Positions 1,488 through 64,000 of a DNA stretch of 64,000 nt are shown piece after piece. A model generated the notes under the pieces. It was not told the DNA's origin, did not search any database, and worked only from the letters and a program-made list of their open reading frames with translations. Both the position numbers and the translations under genes were made by a program. The stretch spans positions 3,425 through 67,424 of the forward strand of contig CAZPMS010000006.1 of the NCBI GenBank assembly GCA_964588165.1. Reading direction: 5' to 3'. Each line of letters begins with the position of its first letter. Within the stretch, counting starts at the first letter, position 1. The stretch is from an uncultured Gammaproteobacteria bacterium (GTDB taxonomy: Bacteria > Patescibacteriota > Patescibacteriia > UBA1558 > UBA10009).

Positions 1488-1610
1488 GTTTTTATACCGT
1501 CTCTATTAATCATACTTATTATGGTCATGCTATGACTTTAGCTTTCACCTAACCAAACCCAAAGCCAATAAAAATCAACTAGTGGAATTAAAAAAAGCTT
1601 TTCCTCAATT

Positions 1611-1693
1611 GTCATTTCGAGCTCCGTCGAGAAATCCCGTTATAAACAGTACGTTTTAATAACACGGGATCCCTCCGCTCCGGTCGGGATGAT
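1611..1693. mobile_element. 83-bp MITE, GTCAT-TIR family, copy 1
   Basis: Left arm GTCATTTCGAGCTCCGTCGAGAAATCCCGTTA. Right arm reverse-complements to ATCATCCCGACCGGAGCGGAGGGATCCCGTGTTA. Centre contains AGTACGT. Same length and layout as 57437-57519. Confidence 0.75.
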
Positions 1694-1705
1694 AAAAATC
1701 AAATC

Positions 1706-14084: not shown

Positions 14085-14181
14085 ATTTTTATTATTAATT
14101 ATTAATAATTGATGATTAATGACTTATGATCATACTTATAATTAATTGATCATAAATCATAGTCCATAAATTAATTTCAAT

Positions 14182-25168: not shown

Positions 25169-25192
25169 AAATTTTAGCTACTAGATACAACC

Positions 25193-33137: not shown

Positions 33138-33211
33138 AGTATTTTTAGTTAAATTACAAATTATTTAATGGCCGCGCCATGAAGTTTATGAGCGCAGCGA
33201 ATAATACTTCA

Positions 33212-34318: not shown

Positions 34319-34371
34319 TCTACCCCAGCCAAAGGCTGGTCCGCCTCTGACGGAAACTGAGCTATGTCGGC
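34319..34371 (-). pseudogene. third tRNA-Thr-like 5' fragment (acceptor GCCGACA) with a twin hairpin in the D-loop
   Basis: GCCGACATAGCTCAGTT[TCCGTCAGAGGCGGA][CCAGCCTTTGGCTGG]GGTAGA, then decays. The perfect palindrome ATGTTTTTTTAAAAAAACAT (34279-34298) lies downstream. Confidence 0.65.
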
Positions 34372-35284: not shown

Positions 35285-36139
35285 TTAAATATTAAATAAA
35301 TTGGCTTTTTTTTCAACTACTTGGCTTACTGCTTCTATAGAAGGTTTTATAACTTCACGGGGGTCAACTAAATTCCCTTCCATTTTTATAGTTTGTTTTA
35401 AACTATTGGTAAAGGCAATTCTTAAATCGGTATCCACATTAATTACCCTAACGCCGCCGCCGATTGCCTTTTTAACTTGTTTATCTTCTACGCCAGAACC
35501 GCCATGCAGAACAATGGGAATATCAATTTCCTTAGTTATTTTTTTTAATCTGGCAAAATCAATATTTTCTTCTCCTACAAAATTACCATGCATGCTGCCA
35601 ATAGAAACAGCTACAGTATTAACCCCTGTTCTTTCTATAAATTCCTTAATCTGTTCTGGATTTGTCATTAACTTTTTTAAATCTTCTCCTTGCTGCATCT
35701 TTATAAGCCCTTCTTTGCCGTAAATGTTGCCCAATTCTCCTTGAACCCAAACTCCTTTTTCTTTAGCTATTTCCACTGCTTCTTTGGTTAGCTTTATATT
35801 TTCTTCAAAAGAATACTCTGAAGCGTCCATGTGGACAGAAGAAAAACCCAGTTCAACACAAGCCCTTAGAACTTCCAAATTTTTACCGTGATCTAAATGA
35901 ATGGCTATAGGCACATCTCCACTTTCTTTTTCTATGGTCTTCTTAATTAAACAGTACAAAGCCTCTAAACCGGCATACTTTATGGATTTTTCAGTAACTT
36001 GAATAATAGCGGGTAAATTTGACTTCTTTATTCCACTGACAATACCTTGGGTAACTTCTAAATTAAAAGTATTAAAAGCGCCTGCTGCTGTTTGGTTTTT
36101 TACTTTTTCTTCAACTATTTCTTTAATATGAGTTAACAT
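35285..36139 (-). CDS. fba: class II fructose-bisphosphate aldolase
   Basis: 284 aa with the HLDHG, SVHMDAS and VLHGGSG motifs. Confidence 0.9.
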   Translation of the reverse strand: MLTHIKEIVEEKVKNQTAAGAFNTFNLEVTQGIVSGIKKSNLPAIIQVTEKSIKYAGLEALYCLIKKTIEKESGDVPIAIHLDHGKNLEVLRACVELGFSSVHMDASEYSFEENIKLTKEAVEIAKEKGVWVQGELGNIYGKEGLIKMQQGEDLKKLMTNPEQIKEFIERTGVNTVAVSIGSMHGNFVGEENIDFARLKKITKEIDIPIVLHGGSGVEDKQVKKAIGGGVRVINVDTDLRIAFTNSLKQTIKMEGNLVDPREVIKPSIEAVSQVVEKKANLFNI

Positions 36140-36170
36140 AATATGATGATTGAAAACTGTTGATTGATGA

Positions 36171-36186
36171 TTGATGAATAATGATT
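36171..36186 (-). repeat. 16-nt upstream motif AATCATTATTCATCAA (copy 1, before fba)
   Basis: Exact 16-mer (plus strand ttgatgaataatgatt), also at 42099-42114 and 47831-47846. Each lies 10-32 nt upstream of a minus-strand start codon. Confidence 0.6.
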
Positions 36187-36223
36187 AAAAACTAATCAAT
36201 CATTAATTTTTAATTATTAGTTA

Positions 36224-41429: not shown

Positions 41430-42088
41430 GCTAATTTAAATTTATTTATTTCTAAGCTGAATTTATAACCTAAATATTCTGCCGAATGCCGACAATAAAC
41501 CATCCTGGCGGTAAATATTTCAAAATAATTCATTGGCTGGGTAAACTTGGTATCAATTGTTAAATCAAGAGTGATGGTTTTTTTGCCATTATTTATTTTA
41601 AGTTGGTTGTCCTTAACAGCATAATTAACTCGGTCATGGATATCCGCTTTTATTTTATCCATCTTTTTAGTTAAAACCCGGCTACGATGAACATCGGACT
41701 TATCGGCAATTATGGCAGCTGCAGAAACTTTACTCATTATATTTATATCTTCTTTATCATGGGCCACAATGGCTTCCATAATGTCAGAAACCTGTTTAAC
41801 ATCTTTGTTATTGCCAAAAACCTGATGGAATAAAAGCCCAGCCCAATAATGATGGTAAGTCCTGCCTAAAAAATTACCCATATCATGGCAATAGCCGGCT
41901 ATCTTGGAATTTTCCGTATCAACTTTGCTAAACTTTAAATTCCTGGCAATTTTTCCTGCCCTATCGGCCACAATGCCCACGTGCCTAAAACCATGGTCAG
42001 TATAACCAATATCTTTTAAATATCCAGCTGACTGTTTTATAAACTGCTGGATTTGCGGATTAGCTTTTACTTGTTCAAAGGTTATCAT
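41426..42088 (-). CDS. HD-domain phosphohydrolase
   Basis: 220 aa. H..HD pattern (FRHVGIV...GYCHDMGN). Confidence 0.75.
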   Translation of the reverse strand: MITFEQVKANPQIQQFIKQSAGYLKDIGYTDHGFRHVGIVADRAGKIARNLKFSKVDTENSKIAGYCHDMGNFLGRTYHHYWAGLLFHQVFGNNKDVKQVSDIMEAIVAHDKEDINIMSKVSAAAIIADKSDVHRSRVLTKKMDKIKADIHDRVNYAVKDNQLKINNGKKTITLDLTIDTKFTQPMNYFEIFTARMVYCRHSAEYLGYKFSLEINKFKLA

Positions 42089-42098
42089 GATTTAATAA

Positions 42099-42114
42099 TT
42101 GATGAATAATGATT
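42099..42114 (-). repeat. 16-nt upstream motif AATCATTATTCATCAA (copy 2, before the HD gene)
   Basis: Exact copy, 11 nt upstream of the ATG at 42088. Confidence 0.6.
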
Positions 42115-42123
42115 CATGACTGA

Positions 42124-43506
42124 TTATTTAATCTTTATCCCTAATTCTTTAAGTTGGTCTTTATCCACTTCCGATGGTGAATCCATCAATGGATCTCTAT
42201 TATCAGAAGTTTTTGGAAAAGCCATTACTTCTCTTATGCTGGTTTCGCCCGCTAAAATTGCGATTAATCTATCTAGGCCAAAAGCAATACCTCCATGAGG
42301 CGGAACACCATATTTGAAAGCCTCTAAAAGATGTCCAAACTTATCTTTAATTTCCTTATCTTTATGGCCTAAAACTTCAAAAATTTTATAAAGAATTTTA
42401 GGATCAGAAGTTCTAATAGAGCCGCCGGCAATTTCTTGGCCGTTTAAGGCTAAATCATATTGTAGGGCCCTAACATCTTTTAAGTCACCTTTTTCTACTT
42501 TATCTAAATCTTCGGAATTAATAGCGGTAAAAGGATGATGAGCTGCACCCCAACGCTTATCGCCTTCTTTATATTCAAACATCGGAAAATCAGTTACCCA
42601 AACAAAGGCTAATTCATTATCATCTTCTTTGTTTTTTCTAACATCTGGCTTGTCAGACTTATACTTTTCTATAGCTTCTTTATGTGTCATTCTAGAAATA
42701 CTCATTTTGGCTTCTGGCTTAACTTTGGCAACAACTGACTTTATCAATTTTTCTATCAAAGAAATAATTTCTTTTTGATTTACAAAGCTCATTTCCATAT
42801 CCAGTTGAGTAAATTCCGCTTGCCTATCGCCTCTTTGGTCTTCATCTCTAAAACATCTAACTATTTGAAAATATTTTTCCATCCCGGCAATCATTAACAT
42901 CTGTTTGTACTGTTGTGGGCTTTGAGGCAAAGCATAAAAATTTCCTTTAAAATTTCTTGAAGGAACTAAAAAATCTCTTGCGCCTTCGGGTGTAGACTTA
43001 GAAAGAAATGGGGTTTCTATTTCTAAAAAATCTTCTTTATAAAAGAATTCTCTAATAGTTTTAATAACTTCGTGCCTTAATTTAATATTTTTCTGCATTC
43101 TTTCATGCTTTAAGTCTAAATATCTGTATTTAAGCCTAAGTTCTTCGTTAGCTTGCCTATCTTCATTATCAATCTCAAATGGCGGAGTTACTGCTTCTGA
43201 TAAGATTTTGACTTGCTTAGCCAATACCTCAACTGTACCGGTTGGTATATCTTTATTAACCTGCTTATCACCTCTTTTATTGACGGTGCCGTTTATTTCT
43301 AAAACATATTCAGGTTTTATGTTCTTGATAATTTCGGCTGAATCTTTATCCAGTTCTGATGGCACCAGGACAACCTGAACAATGGCAGATTTATCTCTAA
43401 GGTCTACAAACATTATCTTGCCCATTTTCCGGACGCTATGCGCCCAGCCGGCCAGCAAAACTTCTTTATTAATTTGTTTAGTTGTTTCTATATTATTTAT
43501 TTTCAT
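42124..43506 (-). CDS. aspS: aspartate--tRNA ligase (compact form without the large insertion domain)
   Basis: 460 aa. OB-fold N-terminus, class II motif 2 FRDEDQRGDRQAEFTQLDMEMSF, motif 3 GGIAFGLDRL. Confidence 0.92.
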   Translation of the reverse strand: MKINNIETTKQINKEVLLAGWAHSVRKMGKIMFVDLRDKSAIVQVVLVPSELDKDSAEIIKNIKPEYVLEINGTVNKRGDKQVNKDIPTGTVEVLAKQVKILSEAVTPPFEIDNEDRQANEELRLKYRYLDLKHERMQKNIKLRHEVIKTIREFFYKEDFLEIETPFLSKSTPEGARDFLVPSRNFKGNFYALPQSPQQYKQMLMIAGMEKYFQIVRCFRDEDQRGDRQAEFTQLDMEMSFVNQKEIISLIEKLIKSVVAKVKPEAKMSISRMTHKEAIEKYKSDKPDVRKNKEDDNELAFVWVTDFPMFEYKEGDKRWGAAHHPFTAINSEDLDKVEKGDLKDVRALQYDLALNGQEIAGGSIRTSDPKILYKIFEVLGHKDKEIKDKFGHLLEAFKYGVPPHGGIAFGLDRLIAILAGETSIREVMAFPKTSDNRDPLMDSPSEVDKDQLKELGIKIK

Positions 43507-43519
43507 ATTTTACCTCTAC

Positions 43520-43600
43520 GTCATTCCGAGCGAGGCTAAACCCTCGCCTTAACGTTTAAATTATTAAAAAATTGTTTAACGAAGAATTCAGCTTATCATT
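43520..43600. mobile_element. degenerate GTCAT-TIR MITE (copy 3)
   Basis: The left arm GTCATTCCGAGCGAGGCTAAACCCTCGCCTTAACG is clear. The right arm TAACGAAGAATTCAGCTTATCATT is only weakly related. Total length is ~81 bp, like the 83-bp copies. Confidence 0.4.
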
Positions 43601-43875: not shown

Positions 43876-43923
43876 ATTTTTATTGGTTAATTAATTATTA
43901 TTTTTTTTGTATTCTACTACTAC

Positions 43924-44299
43924 GCCATTCCGAGCTTGTCGAGGAATCCCGTTATTCCGGAAAGACGATTTTTAAATTCTTATTAACTCGCTTTATTAAA
44001 TCCAATTTTTTAAAACGACTCCATTTTTTTAACTGTTTTTCTCTATCAATCGCTTCAATAATACTTTCATAACTTTCAAAATAAACTAATTCATCAACAT
44101 TATATTTTTTAGTAAATCCTTTTAATTTTAATTGATGTTCATCTAATCTTCTAGCTAAATCATTGGTAACTCCTATATAAATCACTGTTCTCCTATGATT
44201 CATTAAAAAATAGACGTAAAATTCTTTTTGTAACACATTTTAAACTTTCCTACCCTGATACATTTATTAACGGGATCTCTCCACCTTGGTCGAGATGAC
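43924..44299 (-). mobile_element. GTCAT-TIR element carrying a GIY-YIG gene (putative autonomous partner of the 83-bp MITEs)
   Basis: Plus-strand left arm GCCATTCCGAGCTTGTCGAGGAATCCCGTTA (43924-43954). The right arm 44268-44299 reverse-complements to GTCATCTCGACCAAGGTGGAGAGATCCCGTTA. The ORF stop TAA lies inside the left arm. Confidence 0.7.
43952..44236 (-). CDS. small GIY-YIG nuclease-family protein (COG2827-like)
   Basis: 94 aa. FYVYFLMN..VIYIGVTNDLARRLDEH..FTKKYNV..LVYFE. Confidence 0.85.
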   Translation of the reverse strand: MLQKEFYVYFLMNHRRTVIYIGVTNDLARRLDEHQLKLKGFTKKYNVDELVYFESYESIIEAIDREKQLKKWSRFKKLDLIKRVNKNLKIVFPE

Positions 44300-44309
44300 G
44301 TCTGAGAAA

Positions 44310-47125: not shown

Positions 47126-47821
47126 TCATCCTCTGAAAGCCTCGGCAAATGCTGAGGCTTTTTCTTTTTCTGTAAGATTACGCCACTTACCGGGCGGTAA
47201 ATCTTCCATTTTAATGCTACCAACTCTGATTCTTTTCAAACTAAGCACCTCATAGCCTATATTTTCTACCATCCGCCTTATTTGCCTATTCCAGCCTTGG
47301 TGGACTACAATTCGTAATTTATTATCCGAAACTCTTAAAATCTTATCGGCCTTGGCAATTCCCTCCCTCAACTTGATGCCCTGTCTCAATTTTTTAATTG
47401 ACTGTTCATTAATTACTTGTTCAGTTTCTACTAAATATTCTTTTTCATGTTTGAACTTGGGATGCATTATTTTATTGGCAAAGTCGCCGTCATTAGTAAG
47501 GATAATCAAACCGGATGATTCTACATCTAACCTGCCAACCGGATAAATTCTTTCTTTAATATCAATCTTTTCTATAATATTATCTCTTTTTGTCTCATCA
47601 GTTGTGCAAATAACACCAACCGGTTTATGGTAAGCAATGTAAATTGATGACTGATGATTAATGATTAATTTTTTTCCGACCTTAACTTCATCAGTCTCAT
47701 CAACCTGGCTACCAAGTTCGGCTATCTCATCATTAATAAAAACCTTGTTTTGTTTTATTAGTTCATCAGCTTGCCTGCGTGAACAGTGTCCGCTTTCGGC
47801 TAAATATTTGTTTATTCTCAT
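47126..47821 (-). CDS. rluB: 23S/16S rRNA pseudouridine synthase, RsuA/RluB family
   Basis: S4 domain MRINKYLAESGHCSRRQADELI, catalytic VGRLDVESSGLIILTNDG. The C-terminal ~10 aa derive from islet sequence. Confidence 0.88.
   Translation of the reverse strand: MRINKYLAESGHCSRRQADELIKQNKVFINDEIAELGSQVDETDEVKVGKKLIINHQSSIYIAYHKPVGVICTTDETKRDNIIEKIDIKERIYPVGRLDVESSGLIILTNDGDFANKIMHPKFKHEKEYLVETEQVINEQSIKKLRQGIKLREGIAKADKILRVSDNKLRIVVHQGWNRQIRRMVENIGYEVLSLKRIRVGSIKMEDLPPGKWRNLTEKEKASAFAEAFRG
47139..47170 (+). terminator. terminator of islet ORF 6, embedded in the rluB 3' coding end
   Basis: GCCTCGGCA-AAT-GCTGAGGC followed by TTTTTCTTTTTC. Its reverse complement encodes the last residues (ASAFAEAFRG) of the live rluB gene. 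Confidence 0.7.
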
Positions 47822-47830
47822 ATTTAATGA

Positions 47831-47846
47831 TTGATGAATAATGATT
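47831..47846 (-). repeat. 16-nt upstream motif AATCATTATTCATCAA (copy 3, before rluB)
   Basis: Exact copy, 10 nt upstream of the ATG at 47821. Confidence 0.6.
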
Positions 47847-47854
47847 AATGAATT

Positions 47855-47936
47855 ATCTGTGAGTAATCCCTACCTTCCGGCAGGCAGGCGTGGGTCATCT
47901 GGTGGGTAATCAGTAAATATCTGTGACTTATCCGTG
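47855..47936 (+). repeat. phased heptamer array E (ATCTGTG, ATCTGGT, ATCAGTA, ATCTGTG, ATCCGTG) with a GC hairpin insert
   Basis: Heptamers start at 47855, 47897, 47909, 47919 and 47930. The hairpin CCTACCTTCCGGCAGGCAGG lies at ~47868-47887. The array abuts TTGACC at 47937. Confidence 0.65.
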
Positions 47937-52381: not shown

Positions 52382-52557
52382 CGAGGATAAATTCCTCGCC
52401 TGCGGAATATTATATTTATTAGCGAGGCTAAACCCTCGCCTGAACGATCTACTATCCCCAAAGTTGAGCAGAGGGTTTAGCCTCTGCATAAAATCCGTAG
52501 ACTATAAATGTAATAAATTACTTAACAAAATACCGTAACAGAGGAATTTATCCTCTG
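52382..52557. repeat. four-hairpin composite repeat filling the purD-purN spacer
   Basis: H1 CGAGGATAAATTCCTCG (52382), H2 GCGAGGCTAAACCCTCGC (52422), H3 GCAGAGGGTTTAGCCTCTGC (52468), H4 CAGAGGAATTTATCCTCTG (52539). H3 resembles rc(H2) and H4 resembles rc(H1). H2 plus its flank equals the arm at 43527-43554. Confidence 0.65.
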
Positions 52558-52562
52558 CAAAT

Positions 52563-53933
52563 TTAAGACTTTAATTCTTCCATCATCTTAATTCTTTTTT
52601 CTATCAATTCCTTAGTTCCAATATCCGGCCTATAGAAAACCGGACCGGTTATCTTTTTTATTTCTGCTTCTACCATTTTTTCTGCTTCATATAAATCTTC
52701 ATGAATACCCACTAATGCCACGGCCCTGGAACCGGCTAGATACAGGCCGTCTTCTCTTTGATCGACTGAGGCATAAAAAACTTTAACTTTAGACTGGTCT
52801 ACTTTAGAAACATCAATCTTTTTATCTTTGGTAGGATTTTCCGGATAACCTTCTGGCACTACATATTTACAGACTGTAGATTTTTTTTGAAGCTCTGGCT
52901 TTAATTGATCTAAATTACCGTTAATAATGGCTGAACATATTTCTAAAAAATCTGCTGATTTGTTGGCGGGAAAAGTTTTAGGCGGGAAAAGTGGCAACAC
53001 ATTCATGGCCTCTGGATCGCCTAACCTGGCATTATACTCAATCAGTTTGACTCCATTCTTAGTTAGCATAAAACCGCCATACAAAAATCCCTTATAGCTT
53101 TTACCAAACTTCTTTTTTAAAGCAACAGCCGTAGCTTCATTTACCCGACGGGCTTCTTTAATATCTTCTTCATCTAAAAATGGTAAAGAAAAATCTGCCA
53201 TAGAATAAGAACCCATGCCACCGGTATTAGGTCCTTTATCATCTACTAGAGCTCTTTTATTATCTTGAACCGCTGGCAGATGTAATAAATGTTCGCCATC
53301 ACAAAAACTCATCAAACTAAATTCCTGGCCAACCAATTTTTCTTCTATAACAACCTTATGACCTGATTCAAAATGTTTTTTTATAATCTCCAGGCCTTCG
53401 TTCATATTTTTAAAATGGTCGCCAGCCACAGTTACTCCTTTACCGCCAGCTAAACCGTCTTGTTTAATTACAAAATTTTCTTCCAAATGTTGAATCCAGT
53501 CTTCTACCCCTTCCATATCTTCACCCAGTCCTTCGCGAAGAGCTGGGTCAAAAACCATAAACTCGGGACTGCCATTTATTTTATAATCCTTAAATAATTC
53601 ACGAGTGAAGGCTTTACTGGTTTCTATCTGGGCTAAATCCTTGTCCGGGCCTACTGATGGAATGCCAACTTGGGATAAAACATCTACTACTCCTTGGCCT
53701 AAAGGAGCTTCTGGACCGATAAGGCAAAAATCAATAGATTTTTCGGTGGCATAACTAACTATAGAAGTATTATTTTTAAGCTCGCCAACTTTATAATCAG
53801 TTGCCAGCTCTTTAGTGCCTGGATTTGTGGATGAGGCAAATACATAAAGCTCTATTTCTTCTTTAGAAGATTTTAAAACAGAAGCCATGGCATGCTCTCT
53901 GGCACCAGAGCCAACTAACAAAACTTTTTTCAT
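52563..53933 (-). CDS. purD: phosphoribosylamine--glycine ligase
   Basis: 456 aa, ATP-grasp. VLLVGSGAREHA, GLAGGKGV, NARLGDPE. Confidence 0.93.
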   Translation of the reverse strand: MKKVLLVGSGAREHAMASVLKSSKEEIELYVFASSTNPGTKELATDYKVGELKNNTSIVSYATEKSIDFCLIGPEAPLGQGVVDVLSQVGIPSVGPDKDLAQIETSKAFTRELFKDYKINGSPEFMVFDPALREGLGEDMEGVEDWIQHLEENFVIKQDGLAGGKGVTVAGDHFKNMNEGLEIIKKHFESGHKVVIEEKLVGQEFSLMSFCDGEHLLHLPAVQDNKRALVDDKGPNTGGMGSYSMADFSLPFLDEEDIKEARRVNEATAVALKKKFGKSYKGFLYGGFMLTKNGVKLIEYNARLGDPEAMNVLPLFPPKTFPANKSADFLEICSAIINGNLDQLKPELQKKSTVCKYVVPEGYPENPTKDKKIDVSKVDQSKVKVFYASVDQREDGLYLAGSRAVALVGIHEDLYEAEKMVEAEIKKITGPVFYRPDIGTKELIEKRIKMMEELKS

Positions 53934-55483: not shown

Positions 55484-56839
55484 TTATTTAATATACTTAT
55501 CTACCAGCTTACTGGCTAAACCGATATAATTTTCCGGGGTAAGCTTTAGCAGCTGATCCTTTGCCTGTTTGCTTATCTTTAAACTTCTAATGAATTTATG
55601 AAGCTCAATTTTATTTATAGTTTTTCCTCTGGTTAATTTTTTTAAAGCCTCATACGGTTTAGGATAGCCTTCTTTTCTTAAAACCACCTGGATTGGTTCG
55701 GCTAAAAGCTGCCATTGGTCTGATAATTCCTCTGCTACTTTTTGTTTATTTACTTCTAAACGTGATAAGCCTTTTAAAGTTGATTTTAAGGCCAATAAAC
55801 TATAGCCAATGGCCACGCCTTGGTTTCTCAATACTGTACTATCAGAAAGATCACGTTGCATCCTGGAAACTGCTAATTTTTCTGCTAAATGATTTAGAAT
55901 TGAGTTGGACAGCCCAAGATTACCTTCACTATTTTCAAAGTAAATTGGATTTACCTTATGGGGCATGGTTGATGAACCGACTTCTCCCTTAACTTTTTTC
56001 TGTTTGAATATGCCACGACTGATATAAAGCCAGATATCTTGATCTAAATCTTTGATAATATTATTAACTCTTATTAAATGATGGTAAGCTTCAGCTGATC
56101 CGTCATGAGGCTCTATTTGAGTTGTTAAAGGATTAAATTCAAGGCCGAATGATTCAATAAAATTTTTGCTAAAGCCAAGCCAGTCTACTTTTGGATAAGC
56201 AACCAAATGGGCACTCCAATTACCAACTGCTCCGGAAAATTTTCCTTTTAACGGCAACTGATTAATTTGATCATTGATTCTCTTATAAAAAACTGCTAAC
56301 TCCTTGCCAATGGTAGTTGGGCTGGCTGGCTGGCCATGGGTTAAAGCCAGTAGTGGAGTCCTGCGATGCTTGACTGCTGTTGACCTTAGTTCTTTCAATA
56401 ATTTATTTAAAGATTTTTTATAAGTAGCTAAGCCATCTTTTAACATTAAGGTGTAAGCCAGATTATTTATATCTTCTGAAGTTAAGCCGAAATGAATAAA
56501 TTCCTGATAGTCTTCCAATCTTTTAATCTTCTTAATCTTCTCCTTCAAATAATATTCAACCGACTTAACATCATGATTAGTTGTTTTTTCTATCTTCTTA
56601 ACTTTCTCAGCCTCCTTTATATCAAACTTTTCATAAATAGTTCTAAGTAGCACTCTTTCTTCGTCTGTGAATTCCCGCACTTCCGGAATTTTTGATTCGT
56701 TGGATAAGGCGATTAAATATTCCACTTCAACCTTAAGCCTGTACTTCATTAAAGCACTTTCAGAAAAAATTGAGTTTAGTTCTTTAACCTCATTATAATA
56801 ACGACCATCCAATGGAGAGATTGATGTTAAATTTGACAT
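55484..56839 (-). CDS. purB: adenylosuccinate lyase
   Basis: 451 aa. ISPLDGRY, the fumarate-lyase signature GSSTMPHKVNP. Confidence 0.93.
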   Translation of the reverse strand: MSNLTSISPLDGRYYNEVKELNSIFSESALMKYRLKVEVEYLIALSNESKIPEVREFTDEERVLLRTIYEKFDIKEAEKVKKIEKTTNHDVKSVEYYLKEKIKKIKRLEDYQEFIHFGLTSEDINNLAYTLMLKDGLATYKKSLNKLLKELRSTAVKHRRTPLLALTHGQPASPTTIGKELAVFYKRINDQINQLPLKGKFSGAVGNWSAHLVAYPKVDWLGFSKNFIESFGLEFNPLTTQIEPHDGSAEAYHHLIRVNNIIKDLDQDIWLYISRGIFKQKKVKGEVGSSTMPHKVNPIYFENSEGNLGLSNSILNHLAEKLAVSRMQRDLSDSTVLRNQGVAIGYSLLALKSTLKGLSRLEVNKQKVAEELSDQWQLLAEPIQVVLRKEGYPKPYEALKKLTRGKTINKIELHKFIRSLKISKQAKDQLLKLTPENYIGLASKLVDKYIK

Positions 56840-56946
56840 AAATGATTAAATTACCAATTAACAATTTCCAATAACCAATAAAATTCCAATTCTAAATTTA
56901 ATAATTTTTAATTTATTGGATATTGGTTATTGTAAATTAGATATTA

Positions 56947-57393
56947 TTAAAAGCTTTCTTTTATTTCCTTGATCTTATTTTTAACTTTATTTTGGATTGA
57001 CTCATCGGCCAAACCAAATATCCTAGCACAGGCAGCAGCCACATTTTTAGGATCCAAAACTGTAAGTACCGGCGTATCAGAAGGCATTTGCAAAGTTGAA
57101 TTAATGTTTACCATCATGTCTGATTTATCTTTAAAAGGCGGACAGGCAATAACCGGATGGACGGAATTGGCAGCCACTACTCCGGAAAGGCCGTTTGACC
57201 TACCGGCAATAGTTACGTAGACCAAATCTTTTTCCTTATTATTATTTTTTACAATTTCAAAAACCTTTTCCGGCACTTTATGGGCCGAAGCTATAATGGT
57301 TTCTGATTCTAAATCCCATTTCTTTAATTCCGATGATATTTTGTCAGCCCAATCTTTATCGGACGGACTGCCCATTATTAGAATGACTTTCAT
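56947..57393 (-). CDS. purE: AIR carboxylase/N5-CAIR mutase catalytic subunit
   Basis: 148 aa. IMGSPSD...ASAHK..P...AGRSNGL pattern. Confidence 0.85.
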   Translation of the reverse strand: MKVILIMGSPSDKDWADKISSELKKWDLESETIIASAHKVPEKVFEIVKNNNKEKDLVYVTIAGRSNGLSGVVAANSVHPVIACPPFKDKSDMMVNINSTLQMPSDTPVLTVLDPKNVAAACARIFGLADESIQNKVKNKIKEIKESF

Positions 57394-57436
57394 AAATTTA
57401 TGAATAAAAAATGTTATGGAAAACTTTACTTCTATC

Positions 57437-57519
57437 TGTCATCCTGAGCTTGCCGAAGGATCCCGTTACTTTTAGTACGTGCTATATAATACGGGATTCC
57501 TCAATGTAACTCAGAATGA
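57437..57519. mobile_element. 83-bp MITE, GTCAT-TIR family, copy 2
   Basis: Left arm GTCATCCTGAGCTTGCCGAAGGATCCCGTTA. The right arm reverse-complements to GTCATTCTGAGTTACATTGAGGAATCCCGTA. Centre contains AGTACGT. The outer flanks AAACTTTACTT / AAGTAAAGTTT are also inverted. Confidence 0.8.
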
Positions 57520-57544
57520 CAAAAAGTAAAGTTTTACCTGATTA

Positions 57545-58546
57545 TTATACAAGATAACCGCTTTTTTTCAAATTTTCTTCTATTCTATCCTTAATACTAC
57601 CCTCTTTGGCCTTAAACTGTTGGCCAGTTATCATTTCATACAGTTTTATATATCTGGATGAAAGTTCCACGACAAGCTCTTTAGGGGCTTCTGGCAGTTT
57701 TTCGTCATTATACGGATCACAGTGATCTTTAAACCACAATCTTAAAAATTCCTTATCAATATTATCAGGTTCTTTGCCATCTGATATTCTTTGTTGATAA
57801 GACTCTGCCAGCCAATACCTGGATGAATCCGGCGTATGGATTTCATCTATAAGCATAATATTACCTTCTTCATCCTTTCCGAATTCATATTTGGTATCAA
57901 CTAAAATTAAGCTGTTTTTGCTGGCTACTTCTTGGCCGAATTTAAAAAGTTCCATAGCTTTTTGGGAAATATAATCCCACTCTTGGGCAGTAGCAAAATG
58001 TTCCAACAAAATATCATTTTTGGAAATATTCCTGTCATGTTTTTCAAATTTAGTGCTGGGCGTAATTATTGGTTCCGTAAACTTTTGATTCTTCATCATA
58101 CCTTCTGGAAGTTTATTGCCGCAGAATTCCCTAACGCCTTTTTGATAATTAGTCCAAACTGCTGTATCAGTAGAACCAGTCATGTATCCCCTAACAATTA
58201 CTTCAAACGGAAACACTTTACATTTTTTACCAACTACTACGTTAGGATCAGGAATATCTAAAACAAAGTTGGGAATAATATTTTTAGTTTGCTTAAACCA
58301 CCAGGCGCTTGTTTGGTTTAGAACTTGGCCTTTAAACGGAATTGAGGCTAGCACTCTATCAAAAGCTGACTGCCTATCAGTTGTAATTAAAATTATTTTA
58401 TCTTCTGCTTGTCCTGAACCAGCTTTAGCTTGGTGCTGGATAAAATAGGTATCCCTTACTTTACCTGTCTTTTTTTCACCAAGGCCTTTAAAGTCAATCT
58501 CGGTTAAAACGTTATGAATGTTTTTTTCAATAATTTTTTTATCCAT
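57545..58546 (-). CDS. purC: SAICAR synthetase (long form)
   Basis: 333 aa. GKVRDTY..., ILITTDRQSAFD, LILVDTKYEFG. Confidence 0.9.
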   Translation of the reverse strand: MDKKIIEKNIHNVLTEIDFKGLGEKKTGKVRDTYFIQHQAKAGSGQAEDKIILITTDRQSAFDRVLASIPFKGQVLNQTSAWWFKQTKNIIPNFVLDIPDPNVVVGKKCKVFPFEVIVRGYMTGSTDTAVWTNYQKGVREFCGNKLPEGMMKNQKFTEPIITPSTKFEKHDRNISKNDILLEHFATAQEWDYISQKAMELFKFGQEVASKNSLILVDTKYEFGKDEEGNIMLIDEIHTPDSSRYWLAESYQQRISDGKEPDNIDKEFLRLWFKDHCDPYNDEKLPEAPKELVVELSSRYIKLYEMITGQQFKAKEGSIKDRIEENLKKSGYLV

Positions 58547-58559
58547 ATTATTATTTTAA

Positions 58560-59123
58560 TTATTTTCTAGCTTGTTTAAGGGCTCCTGCATACCATTCCA
58601 GTTCATCTAAAAAATTAACTACCCGCTTATTATATTTTTCATCCAAGGCTTTGCCATTTTCATCAAAAGCATCATTAATCCCGGAAACCATAAAGGAAGT
58701 TGGAATACTAGATGCGCCAAGTTCACCCATTACCGCCCTCAAAGGATTTAAAACTCTAACCCCAGCAAACGGACCTGCAGAATAAGTTACAATTCCACTG
58801 GGCTTGTAATGATATTCAGCTTGAAAATGGTCTAAAATATTTTTTAAAACCGGCGGCACACCATGATTGTATTCACCGGAAACCAATACAAAACCATCGG
58901 CCTGCTCTAAAACCTGATGGACTTTTTCTATGGGCTCTGGAGCTTTGCCAGCATCATATTCCTTATACATTTTATCTAGCATAGGCAAATTAAATTCCAG
59001 TTGATCAACTAGTGTAACTTCGTGTCCGCGCTCTTTTAACTGGTTGGTAATAAATTTTGCCAGTTTAGTGCCCTGGCGTTCGGTCCTTACGGAACCGTAA
59101 ATTACTGCAATATTTAAAGACAT
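58560..59123 (-). CDS. NADPH-dependent FMN reductase family protein
   Basis: 187 aa. IAVIYGSVRTERQGTKLAKF and SGEYNHGVPPVLKN patterns. Confidence 0.7.
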   Translation of the reverse strand: MSLNIAVIYGSVRTERQGTKLAKFITNQLKERGHEVTLVDQLEFNLPMLDKMYKEYDAGKAPEPIEKVHQVLEQADGFVLVSGEYNHGVPPVLKNILDHFQAEYHYKPSGIVTYSAGPFAGVRVLNPLRAVMGELGASSIPTSFMVSGINDAFDENGKALDEKYNKRVVNFLDELEWYAGALKQARK

Positions 59124-59134
59124 AATTTTATTGG

Positions 59135-59533
59135 TTAATTTTTTTTTTCACTGAGAACTTCTTCTATAGTTCTCTTTTTTATAATTAAAGGATGATAATA
59201 AAAAACTGATTGATTATTAAATTCACCTACAAGATATATTTTCAACTTCTTATCTTTAGCCTGAAGCGCTAAAGCCATTCCCAGTTCCACATACTTTCCC
59301 CTGCCTTCAGCAGGATCGGTAAATAAAATAAATACATCTGCTTCCAATAATCCATCTAAATCCCTCACTGCTCTAAAGCTGGCTTCTTCTGATTTGGCTT
59401 CCCTTTCTTTAGTAGAAATCGGCACGTCATTGAACCACTCAACAACGATTTCATGTCCTGATTTTTTAACCAGATCTGCTGCCTTAACAACTTCTTCTTT
59501 GCTTTCTAAAGTTCCGGCCAAATAAACTTTCAT
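59135..59533 (-). CDS. nucleoside 2-deoxyribosyltransferase-like protein
   Basis: 132 aa. MKVYLAG... Rossmann-like start and an acidic motif after beta-4. Weak call. Confidence 0.45.
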   Translation of the reverse strand: MKVYLAGTLESKEEVVKAADLVKKSGHEIVVEWFNDVPISTKEREAKSEEASFRAVRDLDGLLEADVFILFTDPAEGRGKYVELGMALALQAKDKKLKIYLVGEFNNQSVFYYHPLIIKKRTIEEVLSEKKN

Positions 59534-59535
59534 AA

Positions 59536-60771
59536 TTAATAATTTTCAATTGATTGAGAAAAAGGATTTGCTAAAATATTTGATTCTAAAATTTTCTGCC
59601 AGTCATCTGCTGAACATTCAACTTCCCACAAAACTCCATTTTTTATTGAACTGATCTCGGACATATTTAATCTATTATTTAATGTATCAAGTTTTGCCTG
59701 CCCCGTAAAATCGTCTTTGTATCTAGTGAGTAGTTTGTAGGTGGTAGTGAGTAGTTTTGATTTGTCATTAATATAAGGAATCTCCTTATTGGTATTTAAC
59801 AGTTCGTTTGATTTTATTAATTGGTCCACAAACTGTTCTGACTGATCAATAGATTGAATTTCCCAATGAGTATAACGTTTAACTTTGACGCCACTAAAAC
59901 CAAGGTTATTTAAAGCAGTTTGAAGGGTTTCTGCTTCATTGTCGGTAATTATAAGTTCAACCAACATTTCCATAGCCTCTTCCGGTTTTTTATATTCCCC
60001 ATTTTGAATTTGATTATTAAAATTTTGTATCTTGTCTGTTTCTTGCTTCTTGTTTCTTGCTTCTTGTTTATCTAAATAAGCTTTCATTGATTCAAATATA
60101 ATCTGTCCATCATCCGTTCTTTCCGGATGAGGCATTAAAGCTAAAACATTACCAGCCGGATTGCTAACTCCGGCTAAATTATAAACAGCACCATTGGGAT
60201 TAATAGGAAATTGATCTTTTACTTCCCCATTTTTGTCACAATACCTAAAAACTGTCTGGCCATTTTCTTTTAATTGATTTAAGACATCCTCATTAATAAC
60301 AAACCTGCCTTCACCATGGGCAATGGGTAATCCAAAATGATGGCCTTGTTTATAATTATTAAAAGCTGATCTTCCTGACTGAACATCATTTTTAATTCTA
60401 ACCCAAATATTTAAATAACCATGGTTATTCCAAGCCAAGGATGATCCTAAATGGTGGTTTTCTAATCCAGGAATCAATCCAGATTCAACCAAAATCTGAG
60501 CGCCATTACATATACCAATAACCGGCTTGCCTTTGGCTGACTCTTGTTTAACAATATCCATCAAAGGATCCCGGCCGGCAATAGCGCCTGACCTTACTCT
60601 ATCTTCGTAACTAAAACCACCGGCAATAAAATAACCGTCAAATTCCTTTAATTTATTATAATCATCGTTCCATCTAAAAAATTCCGCGTCCATACCGGCT
60701 TTTTTTATAGCCCGAGCTGACTCGTACTCACAATTAGTGCCGGGAAATTGAATAATAGCTATTTTATGCAT
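59536..60771 (-). CDS. purQ: FGAM synthase glutaminase subunit PurQ fused to two PurS-like repeats
   Basis: The N-terminal ~230 aa are a class I GATase (IAIIQFPGTNCE, GICNGAQIL, MPHPER). The C-terminal ~150 aa contain two PurS-like units ending LLNTNKEIPY and ILANPFSQSIENY. The linkers are encoded by reiterated word tracts. Confidence 0.85.
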   Translation of the reverse strand: MHKIAIIQFPGTNCEYESARAIKKAGMDAEFFRWNDDYNKLKEFDGYFIAGGFSYEDRVRSGAIAGRDPLMDIVKQESAKGKPVIGICNGAQILVESGLIPGLENHHLGSSLAWNNHGYLNIWVRIKNDVQSGRSAFNNYKQGHHFGLPIAHGEGRFVINEDVLNQLKENGQTVFRYCDKNGEVKDQFPINPNGAVYNLAGVSNPAGNVLALMPHPERTDDGQIIFESMKAYLDKQEARNKKQETDKIQNFNNQIQNGEYKKPEEAMEMLVELIITDNEAETLQTALNNLGFSGVKVKRYTHWEIQSIDQSEQFVDQLIKSNELLNTNKEIPYINDKSKLLTTTYKLLTRYKDDFTGQAKLDTLNNRLNMSEISSIKNGVLWEVECSADDWQKILESNILANPFSQSIENY

Positions 60772-60773
60772 AA

Positions 60774-61607
60774 TTAATTTGTATCAATATTATTTTGTAG
60801 TTCTTCATTGGAAATAAATTTTGGCCAATTCGGAAGTTGTTGATTACTGTATCTGATAACCTCTGCTTGTGGGGTTTTCTTTTTCCTAATTTCTTCTCTA
60901 TCTTTTATTTCATCTAAAATACCGAATAACATTCTAAAGCTTCCATTATGCCCGGAAACTAAAATTTTTATTGGTCGGTTATTTTGTTCTTGAAACTTTT
61001 GGGCTAATTTATATACATCATTTAAAAACCAAATAAGTTTCCCCAGCACCATTGAATAATTTTCACCGCCTGGAAAAAATCTGCCATAAGAGAATCCCTT
61101 AGCTTTTTCTTCGGCTGCCAATGAATCTTTTTTCTGGCCACCATATTCACCGTAACACCTCTCATTTATTCTTTGATCGATAACAAACCTTTCTTCAGGA
61201 ATTTCTATACCAGCTGACTTTAAAGTTTCTCTGACAGTAACATCAGTTCTGCTCAAACCAGATCTAACTACCAAATCAAATTCTTCTCCTTCTAAATTTT
61301 TACCCATAGCCTGAGCCTGTTCATAACCTTTCTCGGTTAATTCAGCATCAACTGTTCCGGTAAATTTTTTTGCCTCATTATGGGTTGTTTGGGTATGCCT
61401 GATAAATGAAAAATCTATTGCTGTTTTACCAATCTCTTCTTTTAACTTTAAATATTGCTGATATAAATATTCTATTTTGGGTAAAATTTCTCTTAAAATA
61501 TCCGGAGTGGGAATATCTTCTAAATTTTTAGACAAGGTTGAAGCACTTTCCCATAGTTCTCTAATAGAAATTCTCTCTTGCTCAAATTGTGGACCCTCTT
61601 CGTTCAT
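60774..61607 (-). CDS. histidine phosphatase (phosphoglycerate mutase-like) family protein
   Basis: 277 aa. FIRHTQTTHN (RHG-type motif) and a later SGHNGSF (H of the catalytic pair). Confidence 0.65.
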   Translation of the reverse strand: MNEEGPQFEQERISIRELWESASTLSKNLEDIPTPDILREILPKIEYLYQQYLKLKEEIGKTAIDFSFIRHTQTTHNEAKKFTGTVDAELTEKGYEQAQAMGKNLEGEEFDLVVRSGLSRTDVTVRETLKSAGIEIPEERFVIDQRINERCYGEYGGQKKDSLAAEEKAKGFSYGRFFPGGENYSMVLGKLIWFLNDVYKLAQKFQEQNNRPIKILVSGHNGSFRMLFGILDEIKDREEIRKKKTPQAEVIRYSNQQLPNWPKFISNEELQNNIDTN

Positions 61608-61629
61608 GTTTAAATTAATTTATTGCTGA

Positions 61630-61766
61630 CAGATTTTAAATCTTTTTTATATGATGCGGACAGATTTTAAATCTGCCCCTTTCTTACCGCTAACCACTTT
61701 ACCTATTTCGAAAACTTTCTCACCTGATTTTTCCAATTCTGAACGAACAGATTTTAAATCTGCCCC
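61630..61766. repeat. three copies of the 15-bp palindrome CAGATTT-T-AAATCTG at the purM 3' end
   Basis: Copies at 61630-61643 (14/15), 61661-61675 and 61748-61762. The last two are embedded in the 20-mer ACAGATTTTAAATCTGCCCC, 87 bp apart. Confidence 0.75.
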
Positions 61767-62684
61767 GACGATTAATACCATGCCAATGCCCATATTAAAA
61801 ACTCTATACATTTCTTCTTCTGCCACTTCTCCAACTTTTTGGATTAATTTAAAAATTGGCAGTATGTCCCAGGAATGTTTTTTTATCTCAACAGATAAAC
61901 GTTTTGGCAAAACTCTGGGAATATTATCTATAAATCCACCGCCAGTTATATGAGCAATACCGTTTATTTTTTCAACTAAAGGCAAAACTGACTTTACATA
62001 AGATTTATGTGGCATAGCCAACTCTTTGCCTAAACTAAAATTCAGTTCATCAAAATGGCTATCGGCCGTGTAATTATTTGCTTCAAAAAATATCTTTCTA
62101 ATTAAAGATGCGCCGTTAGTATGCATGCCGGATGATGCTAATCCCAGTAAAACATCACCTTCTTTAATTTTTTCACCGGTGATTATTTTATCTTTTTCTA
62201 CAATACCCGTAATACAGCCGGCTACATCATGTTCGCCTTTAACGTAGACTCCCGGCATTTCTGCAGTTTCTCCGCCAATTAAACTGACTCCGTTTTCCAT
62301 GCAGGCTTTGGCCATGCCTGTAACTATTTCTTCTATTTCTTTAGGATCAAGCTTATCGGCAGCTATGTAGTCTAAAAATGTTAAAGGTTTAGCTCCTTGG
62401 CACAAAATGTCATCACAGCAATGGTTAACAATATCCTCACCAACAGTTTCTAGGTTACCAACCATTTTGGCAACTTTAAGCTTAGTGCCTACGCCGTCTA
62501 TGCTTTGGACTAAAATTGGTTGGTTATAATCTTTTAATTGGCTGGCATCATACATGGCTCCAAAGGAACCTAAACCGGTAACCACATTGGCATCAAAAGT
62601 GGCCTTTACTTTATCTTTTATTTTATTTACTGCTTCATTACCGGCATCTATGTTAACACCAGAAGATTTATAACTAATTGACAT
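61647..62684 (-). CDS. purM: AIR synthetase (phosphoribosylformylglycinamidine cyclo-ligase)
   Basis: 345 aa. YKSSGVNIDAGN, DGVGTKL, GGETAEMPG. The C-terminal GADLKSVRII repeats an internal GADLKSVR. Confidence 0.93.
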   Translation of the reverse strand: MSISYKSSGVNIDAGNEAVNKIKDKVKATFDANVVTGLGSFGAMYDASQLKDYNQPILVQSIDGVGTKLKVAKMVGNLETVGEDIVNHCCDDILCQGAKPLTFLDYIAADKLDPKEIEEIVTGMAKACMENGVSLIGGETAEMPGVYVKGEHDVAGCITGIVEKDKIITGEKIKEGDVLLGLASSGMHTNGASLIRKIFFEANNYTADSHFDELNFSLGKELAMPHKSYVKSVLPLVEKINGIAHITGGGFIDNIPRVLPKRLSVEIKKHSWDILPIFKLIQKVGEVAEEEMYRVFNMGIGMVLIVGADLKSVRSELEKSGEKVFEIGKVVSGKKGADLKSVRII

Positions 62685-62746
62685 ATTTTTTACTTATTAA
62701 AAATATTTTAACACCGGCTTGTCCGCCGAAGCCTTGGCGTAGGTGG

Positions 62747-62787
62747 GCATCAATATTAACGCCTGATGATTTATAATCTATTGACAT
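62747..62787 (-). pseudogene. duplicated purM 5' end (first ~14 codons)
   Basis: Minus strand ATGTCAATAGATTATAAATCATCAGGCGTTAATATTGATGC (MSIDYKSSGVNIDA) versus the real MSISYKSSGVNIDA at 62684-62644. A GC hairpin (~62714-62735) lies between the copies. Confidence 0.75.
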
Positions 62788-62808
62788 ATTTTATTTATTA
62801 TATAATAT
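62781..62808 (+). promoter_or_regulatory. sigma70-type promoter of islet ORF 9
   Basis: TTGACA (62781-62786, the reverse complement of the duplicated purM ATGTCAA), N16, TAATAT. Confidence 0.55.
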
Positions 62809-62847
62809 ATATTAATTCGTACCTTTAAACCAACGAGGATTAAAAAA

Positions 62848-63345
62848 ATGCGTTTACGCAGCAGTGTTTTTCTAGCTTTATTACTGTTTTTGCTGTTTGG
62901 TTGTGGATTTATGTTTGAAGAACCGGAACAACCGACCTTTGAAGAAACCCTGAATCTAGTCCAACAATATACCTTTGAAGGGACGGTAGAAAAAACAGAA
63001 ATGCCCATATTTGATACCATTATCATATCTGCAAAGTCTGGAGGAAGAATATACACAATAGGGGTAATGAATCCCAACTGGATCTACTATAACCAAATGG
63101 ATCCTATTGCCCAGTTTGAAAACCCCTTTGATTATGAAAATGTTCATAATCTAAAAAATCAGTTAACAACTGGCTCCCGAATCCGTATTGCTATTAATCA
63201 AGCTCTACCAATTGAATGCAGTGTCCCTTTCAGACTAGTTTACGCAAATAATGATAGTATTCCTTATATCGACTATTTCCTCGAAGGTTTTACTATTCCA
63301 GCATATTTTTCTCCAACTGGTATTACTGAAATACCAATTCCTTGA
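62848..63345 (+). CDS. hypothetical lipoprotein (islet ORF 9)
   Basis: 165 aa. Signal peptide with lipobox LLFGC. SD GAGG. Sits between purM and purL on the opposite strand. Confidence 0.55.
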   Translation: MRLRSSVFLALLLFLLFGCGFMFEEPEQPTFEETLNLVQQYTFEGTVEKTEMPIFDTIIISAKSGGRIYTIGVMNPNWIYYNQMDPIAQFENPFDYENVHNLKNQLTTGSRIRIAINQALPIECSVPFRLVYANNDSIPYIDYFLEGFTIPAYFSPTGITEIPIP

Positions 63346-63361
63346 ATAACTCATTTTCCAA

Positions 63362-63389
63362 ACAGATAGCTTAGGCTGTCTGTTTTTCT
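63362..63389 (+). terminator. terminator of islet ORF 9
   Basis: ACAGATAGC / GCTGTCTGT stem followed by TTTTTC. Confidence 0.6.
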
Positions 63390-63400
63390 TATTTAAAAAA

Positions 63401-64000
63401 CTAATTATTCATTTTATCCCTTAAACCGTTCAACCATTTATCTGCCATTTCTTGAACTGATAAATTGATAATTTCTTGTACCGACGCAATGTCATCCTGA
63501 GCGGAGCCAAAGGATTGCGTCGCTACCTTTAGCGACTGACCACCAGTCTTACCTATTTCAATAGCTTCAATATTATATTTCTCACAAATCTTCTGTACCG
63601 ACGCAACATCCTTAGTTTCTAAAACAAAGCCGCCTGTTTCGGAAAATAATTTCCCTGACGGATAAATTCCGTCAGCTGCGGTTTGGGTGAATTCTATTTC
63701 GCAGCCAATTTTATTTTTCCCATTCCCGCCAAAACACATTTCAGCAAGAGCAACTGCCAATCCACCGTCTGATATATCATGGCAAGCCAACAGTAATTCA
63801 TTATCAATCATATCTGTTACTGCATATATTTGATTTTCTGCCTCTTTAAAATCAGGCTTTGGCACATTGGCACCTAACTCGTTATGGATTTGATAGTAGA
63901 CCGAACCGCCCAGTTCATCTTTACGTTGGCCAATTAATAAAATTGACGAACCGGTTTTTTTAAATTCCATAGTAATGGCCTTATTATAATCCTGAATTCT
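63401..64000 (-). CDS. purL: FGAM synthase II (PurL), C-terminal part; gene continues beyond window end
   Basis: ..LLACHDISDGGLAVALAEMCF.. is typical of the PurL C-terminal AIRS-C domain. The frame stays open to position 64000, and the track start at 63970 is only an internal Met. Confidence 0.88.
   Translation of the reverse strand, partial: RIQDYNKAITMEFKKTGSSILLIGQRKDELGGSVYYQIHNELGANVPKPDFKEAENQIYAVTDMIDNELLLACHDISDGGLAVALAEMCFGGNGKNKIGCEIEFTQTAADGIYPSGKLFSETGGFVLETKDVASVQKICEKYNIEAIEIGKTGGQSLKVATQSFGSAQDDIASVQEIINLSVQEMADKWLNGLRDKMNN
63482..63522 (-). repeat. GTCAT-type hairpin element inserted in frame within purL
   Basis: Plus strand CGACGCAAT-GTCATCCTGAGCGGAGCCAAAGG-ATTGCGTCG, translated as ..ATQSFGSAQDDIAS... 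The 12-mer GTACCGACGCAA is repeated at 63478 and 63595. Confidence 0.6.

Follow-up and report, generated by a model that had tools for sequence, protein, structure and literature searches.

The element examined here is a short hairpin embedded in purL, the gene for FGAM synthase subunit II, near the right-hand end of a 64-kb window (the whole stretch of DNA analysed, from contig CAZPMS010000006.1 of an uncultivated low-GC bacterium; coordinates below are those of the window). purL is read on the minus strand, where it is the first gene of a pur operon that continues with purM, a histidine phosphatase, a purQ-like amidotransferase, purC, and purE. The hairpin occupies 63482-63522 inside the 3' end of the gene and reads CGACGCAAT GTCATCCTGAGCGGAGCCAAAGG ATTGCGTCG on the plus strand; its translation in the purL frame is ATQSFGSAQDDIAS. 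This frame is free of stops across the hairpin (...LKVATQSFGSAQDDIASVQEIINLSV...) and proceeds (...GKTGGQSLKVATQSFGSAQDDIASVQEIINLSVQEMADKWLNGLRDKMNN*) to a TAG at 63403-63401, with the predicted product reading ...VATQSFGSAQDDIASVQEI... across the site. A first-pass annotation of the same DNA had described a GTCAT-type hairpin repeat inserted in frame in purL, and both the gene assignment and the frame are borne out: the 3' part matches Pfam AIRS_C (E=7e-17) and the NCBIfam PurL equivalog models (profile positions 542-715 of 723), and the best Foldseek match for an AlphaFold2 model of the C-terminal part is a PurL structure, PDB 3VIU. The sequence and fold of a C-terminal AIRS_C-type domain and the pur operon setting thus concur in placing the protein in PurL, the last 199 residues of which fall within the window. 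The hairpin sequence is identical in three assemblies, namely that of the window and two independent metagenome scaffolds (L001 and L124), and is therefore no assembly artefact of the window.

From 5.8 billion proteins searched, 219 PurL homologs were retrieved, and 115 of these were compared with the window protein using two alignments of 21 and 116 sequences (A1 and A2). The segment encoded by the hairpin is absent from all 115 aligned homologs, and the only proteins that carry it are the window protein and its identical database copies; the earlier statement that it is extra relative to PurL orthologs thus holds. Across the stretch from IGKTGGQ to NLSVQEM, the window protein has 37 residues and 112 of the 115 homologs have 22-27, the remaining three being one truncated sequence (17) and P0008 and P0083 (45 and 48). 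The nearest homologs, P0002 and P0003 from aquifer metagenomes (about 60% identity by BLASTP, 62-65% in the alignments), read LQIKDNG-REIVNLTV and LKIEDKG-KEVVNLKV and are 11 residues shorter at this point, with 4 codons from LKV to QEI where the window has 15—a net gain of 33 nt. The homolog turn motif x-D/N-x-G is no longer recognisable in the window PurL, in which about 45 nt, consisting of a repeat unit and two short arms of local sequence, stand in place of about 12 nt. The segment shares the hallmarks of in-frame palindromic elements, being absent from orthologs, in frame, and stop-free, with the conserved residues downstream kept; it is a real, in-frame, and lineage-specific insert.

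The 12-mer GTACCGACGCAA occurs at 63478-63489 and again 117 nt away at 63595-63606, as the first-pass annotation had reported; the exact direct repeat is in fact the 13-mer TGTACCGACGCAA, starting at 63477 and 63594. A third, inverted copy of the 12-mer with one mismatch lies at 63515-63526, and the three matches compare with 0.06 expected by chance. The stretch around the native 13-mer (LETKDVASVQKI) has the same length as in the homologs. The other two copies form arms on either side of the repeat unit (arms X and X' in Table 1) and match each other at 11 of 12 positions when the A63489-T63515 pair, which uses the last base of the unit, is included. A perfect complement in arm X' would encode V-P-T-Q, placing a proline in a beta strand; the mismatch gives V-A-T-Q. 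The likeness of arm X to the native copy extends into the unit with a 3-nt gap (CATCCTGAG vs CATCCTTAG). As DNA, the coding strand of the hairpin folds at -14.2 kcal/mol (z = -4.3; 0 of 200 shuffles fold as well), and the plus strand has z = -2.2 against shuffles. The 9-nt arms CGACGCAAT and ATTGCGTCG are not part of the repeat unit described below, and one of them copies native purL sequence.

The repeat unit and its family

The 26-nt core of the purL hairpin begins with a TGTC tag at 63490-63493, followed by an AT (63494-63495) that pairs with the AT at 63514-63515. It shares 13 exact nucleotides plus AAGGAT with a spacer unit at 57437, with fewer than 0.01 full 24-mer matches expected by chance; in the same spacer, GTCATCCTGAG lies at 57438 and recurs, inverted and with one mismatch, at 57510. 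Both gene-less unit dimers of the window are ~86 nt long and take the form TGTCAT-yyy-GAGC...rrr-ATCCCGT...ACGGGAT-...-ATGAyA, and the purL core corresponds to one dimer arm. Its loop, GGAGC, fits G-N-AGCG, the commonest loop type of the family.

A pattern with 18 fixed bases, GTCATCCTGAGC-N6-7-AAGGAT, was scanned over 185,579 species genomes and was found at at least 120 loci (L004-L123), unchanged in at least 15 phyla by our own count from record titles. The foreign units and loci described here and below are those among the matches listed. These loci hold 151 units, in which GTC is preceded by T in 76% of cases and by C in 16%; 120 of the 151 have an inverted partner downstream, and the usual form has a G-N-AGCG loop and a C after AAGGAT. 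Eighteen partner arms, selected by a looser expression that fixes several conserved positions and does not impose base pairing, were aligned without gaps (alignment A3) and were not forced to fit the scan pattern. In this alignment, 98% of cells pair in the scheme AT-NNN/GA/GC-GNA-GC/GA/NNN-AT, shuffle and slide controls being far lower, and five of the seven pairs are changed on both sides; the A5-T25 pair is A-U in 15 arms, G-C in two, and unpaired in one, and T6-A24 is invariant. The stem of a family unit comprises nine positions, of which two are G.A/A.G; the loop is a GNA of 3 nt and the tail C-T/C-N. The GCGNAGC of the family core is known as an unusually stable DNA mini-hairpin.

A covariance model (R1) built from the 18 arms of A3 was run unfiltered on the whole window (128 kb searched), and the purL site is its second-best match. 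Since R1 never saw the purL sequence yet scores this site, the core of the hairpin is a member of the GTCAT hairpin repeat family, albeit a worn one. The repeat-type assignment made in the first-pass annotation therefore stands for the 26-nt core (E=0.002) and falls for the 9-nt arms, which are local sequence. Wear is seen in the GA-GC-GNA-GC-GA core, which carries a G to C change in its 3' arm and one extra A, and in the tail, which reads TGC; the base after the palindrome is T (63516), where all six spacer units of the window and almost all foreign units have C. In all, the window holds seven tagged units, six of which form three inverted pairs in spacers. Rfam gave no family match in 56000-64000 at E up to 1, in agreement with our rejection by eye of a hammerhead or other ribozyme for the GTC...CTGAG core, the CUGANGA core being absent; a literature search for the string GTCATCCTGAGC and its complement returned unrelated primers only. 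The spacer elements of the window should be read as this repeat family, not as unknown RNAs.

A partial R1 match at 33186-33204 was not counted as a unit, as the loop is present and the tag absent, and the match sits in a longer hairpin beside a tRNA gene. That hairpin, CCATGAAGTTTAT-GAGCGCAGCGA-ATAATACTTCATGG at 33177-33211, adjoins the end of the tRNA gene, shows the family loop with no GTC tag, and may be a terminator. Separately, at 43519-43555, a CGTCATTCCGAGC head is joined to another hairpin, GAGGCTAAACCCTCGCC, which recurs as an inverted pair at 52424-52484 and may represent a second small repeat family.

Table 1. Features of the purL locus and repeat units in the window, with matches to covariance model R1
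Feature	Position	Strand	Details
purL 3' part (FGAM synthase subunit II)	63401..64000	minus	last 199 codons and TAG stop; runs past the window end
Arm X GTACCGACGCAA	63478..63489	plus	5' of tag; encodes (I)ASV; with 63477, an exact 13-mer copy of native purL
Solo repeat unit TGTCATCCTGAGCGGAGCCAAAGGAT	63490..63515	plus	26 nt, antisense to purL; TGTC tag; stem begins AT...AT
Arm X' TGCGTCGCTAC	63516..63526	plus	inverted copy of X, 10/11; encodes VATQ
Net 33 extra nt (11 codons, ATQSFGSAQDD), one placement	63491..63523	minus	relative to P0002/P0003; exact boundaries ambiguous
Native 13-mer TGTACCGACGCAA	63594..63606	plus	encodes (V)ASVQ in conserved stretch LETKDVASVQKICEKY
Unit dimer, gene-less	57436..57522		units 57437-57462 plus and 57495-57521 minus; inner stem ATCCCGT...ACGGGAT; between purC and purE; z = -3.8
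Unit dimer, gene-less	1609..1694		units 1610-1636 plus and 1668-1694 minus; inner stem ATCCCGT...ACGGGAT
Unit-gene-unit locus	43923..44300		units 43923-43948 plus and 44274-44300 minus, each followed by ATCCCGTTA; flank GIY-YIG gene
GIY-YIG nuclease gene	43952-44236	minus	94 aa, single domain; Pfam GIY-YIG E=4.8e-17
R1 match	57437	plus	29.6 bits
R1 match, purL site	63490	plus	22.8 bits, E=0.0022; ranks second over 128 kb
R1 match	1610	plus	20.6 bits
R1 match	57495	minus	20.0 bits
R1 match	1668	minus	19.1 bits
R1 match	43923	plus	18.0 bits
R1 match, partial, no tag	33186	plus	16.6 bits
R1 match	44274	minus	15.5 bits

Link to a GIY-YIG nuclease and relation to described repeats

Within the window, the repeat family is linked to a GIY-YIG gene, which lies 19 kb from the purL unit. 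The foreign loci (among the matches listed) encode four GIY-YIG homologs, all within 0-79 nt of a unit, and since about 3% of the foreign sequence is so near a unit, the proximity in four out of four cases is not chance. One of these foreign genes, in a metagenome-assembled genome (MAG) of Chloroflexota, is flanked by units on both sides, and locus L114 has the same arrangement as the window. Both gene-less dimers carry the same inner ATCCCGT stem, and they look like miniature derivatives. In the PDB, a sequence search with the GIY-YIG protein gave weak UPF0213 matches only and no close relative of solved structure.

This architecture has a described counterpart. The NTS (CGTCATTCCCGCGMAVGCGGGAATCYRG; the Neisseria subset) and related SRM motifs flank ssnA in an insertion sequence-like motif-gene-motif layout, and 2% of NTS lie inside genes in N. 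meningitidis 8013 (Chenal et al. 2025, PMC11893778). The ssnA product, a GIY-YIG enzyme of 94 aa, binds the hairpin in single-stranded DNA only, cuts a few nucleotides 5' of it, and has no action on RNA; binding depends above all on the C that follows the palindrome, and cutting chiefly on the bases that precede it (PMC11893778). The family described here is likewise a directional hairpin repeat that begins with yGTCAT and has C after the palindrome in its family units, two of its window units flank a 94-aa single-domain GIY-YIG gene on both sides in inverted orientation (as for ssnA), and its phylogenetic spread is wide; a small fraction of the published units also lies inside genes. Unlike the published motifs, however, the window units are not matched by the degenerate SRM string (HGTCWYN(0-2)YYVSBRHN(0-5)WNVSBRGN(0-2)RNCYNB), which has 0 matches in the window and matches 0 of 5 units tested singly, the purL copy included. 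The purL copy retains the tag and departs from the SRM definition in the base after its palindrome. PMC11893778 describes neither in-frame translated copies nor flank rearrangements of the kind seen in purL. Because the SRM search string is unmatched, the family is a variant, and the best name for it is SRM-like variant of CGTC/TGTC-tagged REPs.

Members of the tagged REP super-family carry an unpaired CGTC (often TGTC) tag, have stems that begin with A-T pairs, occur mostly as dimers, and have no known transposase (Di Nocera, De Gregorio, Rocco 2013, PMC3733652). That survey assigns Rickettsia RPE-4 and RPE-6 to the CGTC/TGTC-tagged super-family and lists many in-frame intragenic copies, including two dimers of the GTAG family (GTAG-17) in purL of Opitutus terrae (PMC3733652). 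The family described here agrees with it in its unpaired terminal 5' CGTC/TGTC tag, in an AT stem start whose first two pairs are A-T and T-A, and in its dispersed, multi-copy occurrence, mostly as inverted dimers in spacers, the published ones lying in spacers between co-directional genes. The published in-frame copies add 8-30 residues and often read ..HD/..ND/..DD in antisense, as the purL copy reads ..AQDD. The two differ in structure: published units have a continuous stem of 8-9 bp, a loop of 4-5 nt, and a CCA tail, whereas the units here have a 5-bp stem, tandem G.A/A.G, and 2 bp, closed by a GNA triloop (GCGNAGC), with a C-T/C tail. Further, the purL copy is degenerate and solitary, with arms of local sequence on either side, and the O. 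terrae precedent comes from the GTAG family, unlike the CGTC/TGTC-tagged unit here.

The family itself has other in-frame members. Among open reading frames spanning foreign units in the matches listed, only two held up under Pfam: a dimer in murB of a Micavibrio MAG (L071, around 6894-6918), between FAD_binding_4 and MurB_C and reading ...LRSFANAQDDS..., and a dimer within the substrate-binding domain of a SpoU-type RNA methyltransferase in a 'Ca. Gilichinskyi gelida' MAG (L100, around 971-995; VILSVSEGS...SFAPAQDD). The purL, murB, and SpoU copies all use the antisense frame that reads ..AQDD, and together they uphold the earlier suggestion that such elements enter coding sequence as well as spacers. 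Other long open reading frames over foreign units were set aside, as they are mostly spurious (in GC-rich loci) or have the unit upstream of the true start, as in L067. In-frame REP insertion is already documented, also for purL, and the present copy is an ordinary further case. Rickettsia RPE-1 palindromic elements of 100-150 bp reportedly lie in frame in protein genes and add 30-50 residues, as Ogata et al. are said to have found in 2000; the purL insert resembles them as a palindromic repeat in frame in a housekeeping gene, absent from orthologs, placed where it is predicted to leave the fold undisturbed, and differs in being a 26-nt unit with local arms and a net gain of 11 residues. Elsewhere in the window, TGTCATCCGAAGAGGATGA at 12164-12182, in the last codons of dnaK (12150-14084, minus strand), has a tag-like head and a short hairpin and may be either a very degenerate unit or a chance resemblance.

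Origin of the purL copy and its effect on the protein

In the AlphaFold2 model of the last 199 residues (mean pLDDT 90), residues 161-170 reach only about 63, after which confidence recovers. The last two modelled strands span residues 156-163 and 173-181 and enclose a loop at 164-172; in the model, the unit thus forms the tip of the final beta hairpin in the C-terminal, AIRS_C-type domain. The arms would form extra strand pairs and the unit the loop, so that the 11 extra residues are predicted to lengthen both hairpin and loop at a length-variable site while the fold is kept. Two homologs have unrelated inserts nearby, one of 22 residues in the turn (P0083, GGCGDEKNAAECEDGCGCVG) and one just before strand 1 (P0008, RGNGSKVGKKGSARSSAV); these inserts and the varying length speak for a generally permissive site. 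We infer from the open frame, together with the conserved W..GLR motif (W189..G192-L-R) after the insert, that the segment is translated and that the enzyme functions. The first-pass annotation had gone further and stated that the repeat is translated and tolerated by an essential enzyme, of which the intact frame is what we observe. The 11 extra residues would most likely be neutral.

Our preferred reading, which we hold with good though not full confidence, is that one 26-nt unit of a dispersed CGTC/TGTC-tagged, SRM-resembling hairpin repeat has become embedded antisense in the 3' end of purL through a complex event, and persists as a probably inert relic. With about 45 nt standing in place of about 12 nt, the event was no clean insertion or cut-and-paste and would have been of a complex repair type, and the ancestral turn was replaced; the segment described earlier as inserted is thus extra and in frame, and the idea of a simple insertion is not sustained. 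The 26-nt unit alone would shift the frame, and 7 further nucleotides restore it (26 + 7 = 33); owing to this net gain of 33 nt, both the frame and the conserved C-terminal helix are kept. The unit has lost the C after the palindrome and the G.A pair, features for nuclease recognition in the Ssn comparison, and is probably inert.

We infer the origin of the arms as follows. A break or stall may have occurred at the hairpin, possibly because the nuclease nicked the DNA immediately 5' of the tag, which is where Ssn enzymes cut. Repair could then have proceeded by short templated, microhomology-guided copying from the native site 117 nt away: the native GGATG/TTG could serve as annealing site for a nascent end ...GGATGACATTG, which could then copy CGTCGGTACA, and the second arm could arise by fold-back synthesis while the tag is looped out. 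Selection would retain only an in-frame, proline-free outcome. A bolder extension, which we regard as doubtful, is that the purL copy records how hairpin units enter genes and are repaired there, in which case the family (GTCATCCTGAGCG-N-AGCGAAGGATC, in 15 or more phyla) might be a pan-bacterial, Ssn-linked mobile hairpin that remodels proteins.

Several points weigh against the repair-embedded relic. One arm holds a 13-mer copy for which the mechanism is only proposed, and flank palindromes are no property of the family: the ungapped flank stem of the purL copy, at 7 bp, falls in the top 0.3% of the control, whereas the flanks of the 151 foreign units (among the matches listed) pair like the random control, also in stem length, and palindromic flanks as a general family trait were therefore rejected. 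Equating the family with SRM draws on architecture and shared features, with the SRM string itself unmatched. A close relative with an empty site was not found, as the protein search returned nothing between about 65% and 100% identity to the window PurL, and the 41-nt hairpin had no exact match in the JGI metagenome contigs scanned, which added no further assemblies; with the nearest homologs only 60-65% identical, the event cannot be dated or its boundaries fixed. Finally, if frameshifts seen in the sibling scaffolds are real, purL would be non-functional today.

These frameshifts underlie the alternative that survives best, although we consider it unlikely: that purL is a pseudogene or was recently inactivated in this population, so that the insert would not be "tolerated" by a working enzyme. 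L001 and L124 lack 11 nt (about 1033-1045) and 28 nt (about 1027), respectively, relative to orthologs at the conserved MWQ-FTEG-VRGV of purL, roughly 140 nt past window position 64000, and both losses shift the frame. The deletions may reflect a scaffolding artefact, real heterogeneity, or a pseudogene; we lean to the first, because the two scaffolds equal the window and each other apart from N-runs and 1-2 SNPs (single-nucleotide polymorphisms) and yet differ from each other at this one purL site, and because L124 has other scaffold joins with missing bases. Both halves of purL are, moreover, long open frames at 36% GC (P estimated at about 1e-7 for 228 stop-free codons), which argues against old decay; the W..GLR motif is kept after the insert, and the remaining pur operon is intact.

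It is decidedly less probable that the hairpin is retained for a nucleic-acid role in purL, whether as an mRNA stabiliser, as a translational pause near the 3' end, or through Ssn-dependent processing that modulates recombination of the pur operon. The hairpin is stable as RNA (-21.5 kcal/mol, z = -2.9 vs shuffles), the pairing of arm X' with the native upstream copy appears in the ensemble centroid, a second family element lies between purC and purE in the same operon, and NTS units modulate transformation in Neisseria (PMC11893778). The unit is, however, degenerate at the Ssn-binding positions (T for C after the palindrome, disrupted G.A pair), is antisense in the mRNA, RNA not being acted on by SsnA, and is carried by one population only.

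Very little probability attaches to a purely local hairpin, produced when template switching duplicated, directly and in inverted form, the native purL segment that lies 117 nt upstream, with the likeness to spacer units coincidental. On the coding strand, CTCAGGATGACATTGCGTCGGTACAAGAAATT and the native CTAAGGATG---TTGCGTCGGTACAGAAGATT agree at 25 of 29 positions with one 3-nt gap (our own count), and the left arm repeats this native segment in inverted form. That segment lacks the loop GAGCGGAGCC and the TGTC tag, however, and the 57437 identities and the R1 score, from a model of foreign units, point away from coincidence; we therefore reject local duplication for the whole hairpin on account of the R1 match to its core and keep it for the arms, which it does explain. 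We give practically no credence to a native, lineage-typical long loop without any insertion, for although the hairpin tip varies in length among homologs and two have other long inserts there, this sequence occurs in 0 of 115, the two nearest are 11 residues shorter, and the DNA carries a unit of the repeat family.

The purL copy thus adds one clean case in which a housekeeping gene of an uncultivated low-GC bacterium harbours a surviving hairpin repeat unit, and the GTCAT spacer repeats of the window are tied to a described system, that of tagged REPs and Ssn-related motifs with a small GIY-YIG single-strand nuclease. No new class of biology is opened; the points worth keeping are the local GIY-YIG link, the failure of the published SRM string to match, and the unusual structure of the flanks, the last being a small lead on how such insertions arise and fit a reading frame.

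Two further sets of spacer repeats were seen in the window. Other GC-rich perfect hairpins, ACCCAGCCCTTCGCGAAGGGCTGGGT and ACCCCAGCCAAAGGCTGGT, recur in spacers at 32097-32122, 53523-53551, 25190-25214, and 34322-34346. AT-rich repeats of the type TGATGAATAATGATT, with 14-nt spacing, occupy several spacers, at 14068-14130, 36116-36188, 42086-42134, and 47638-47862.

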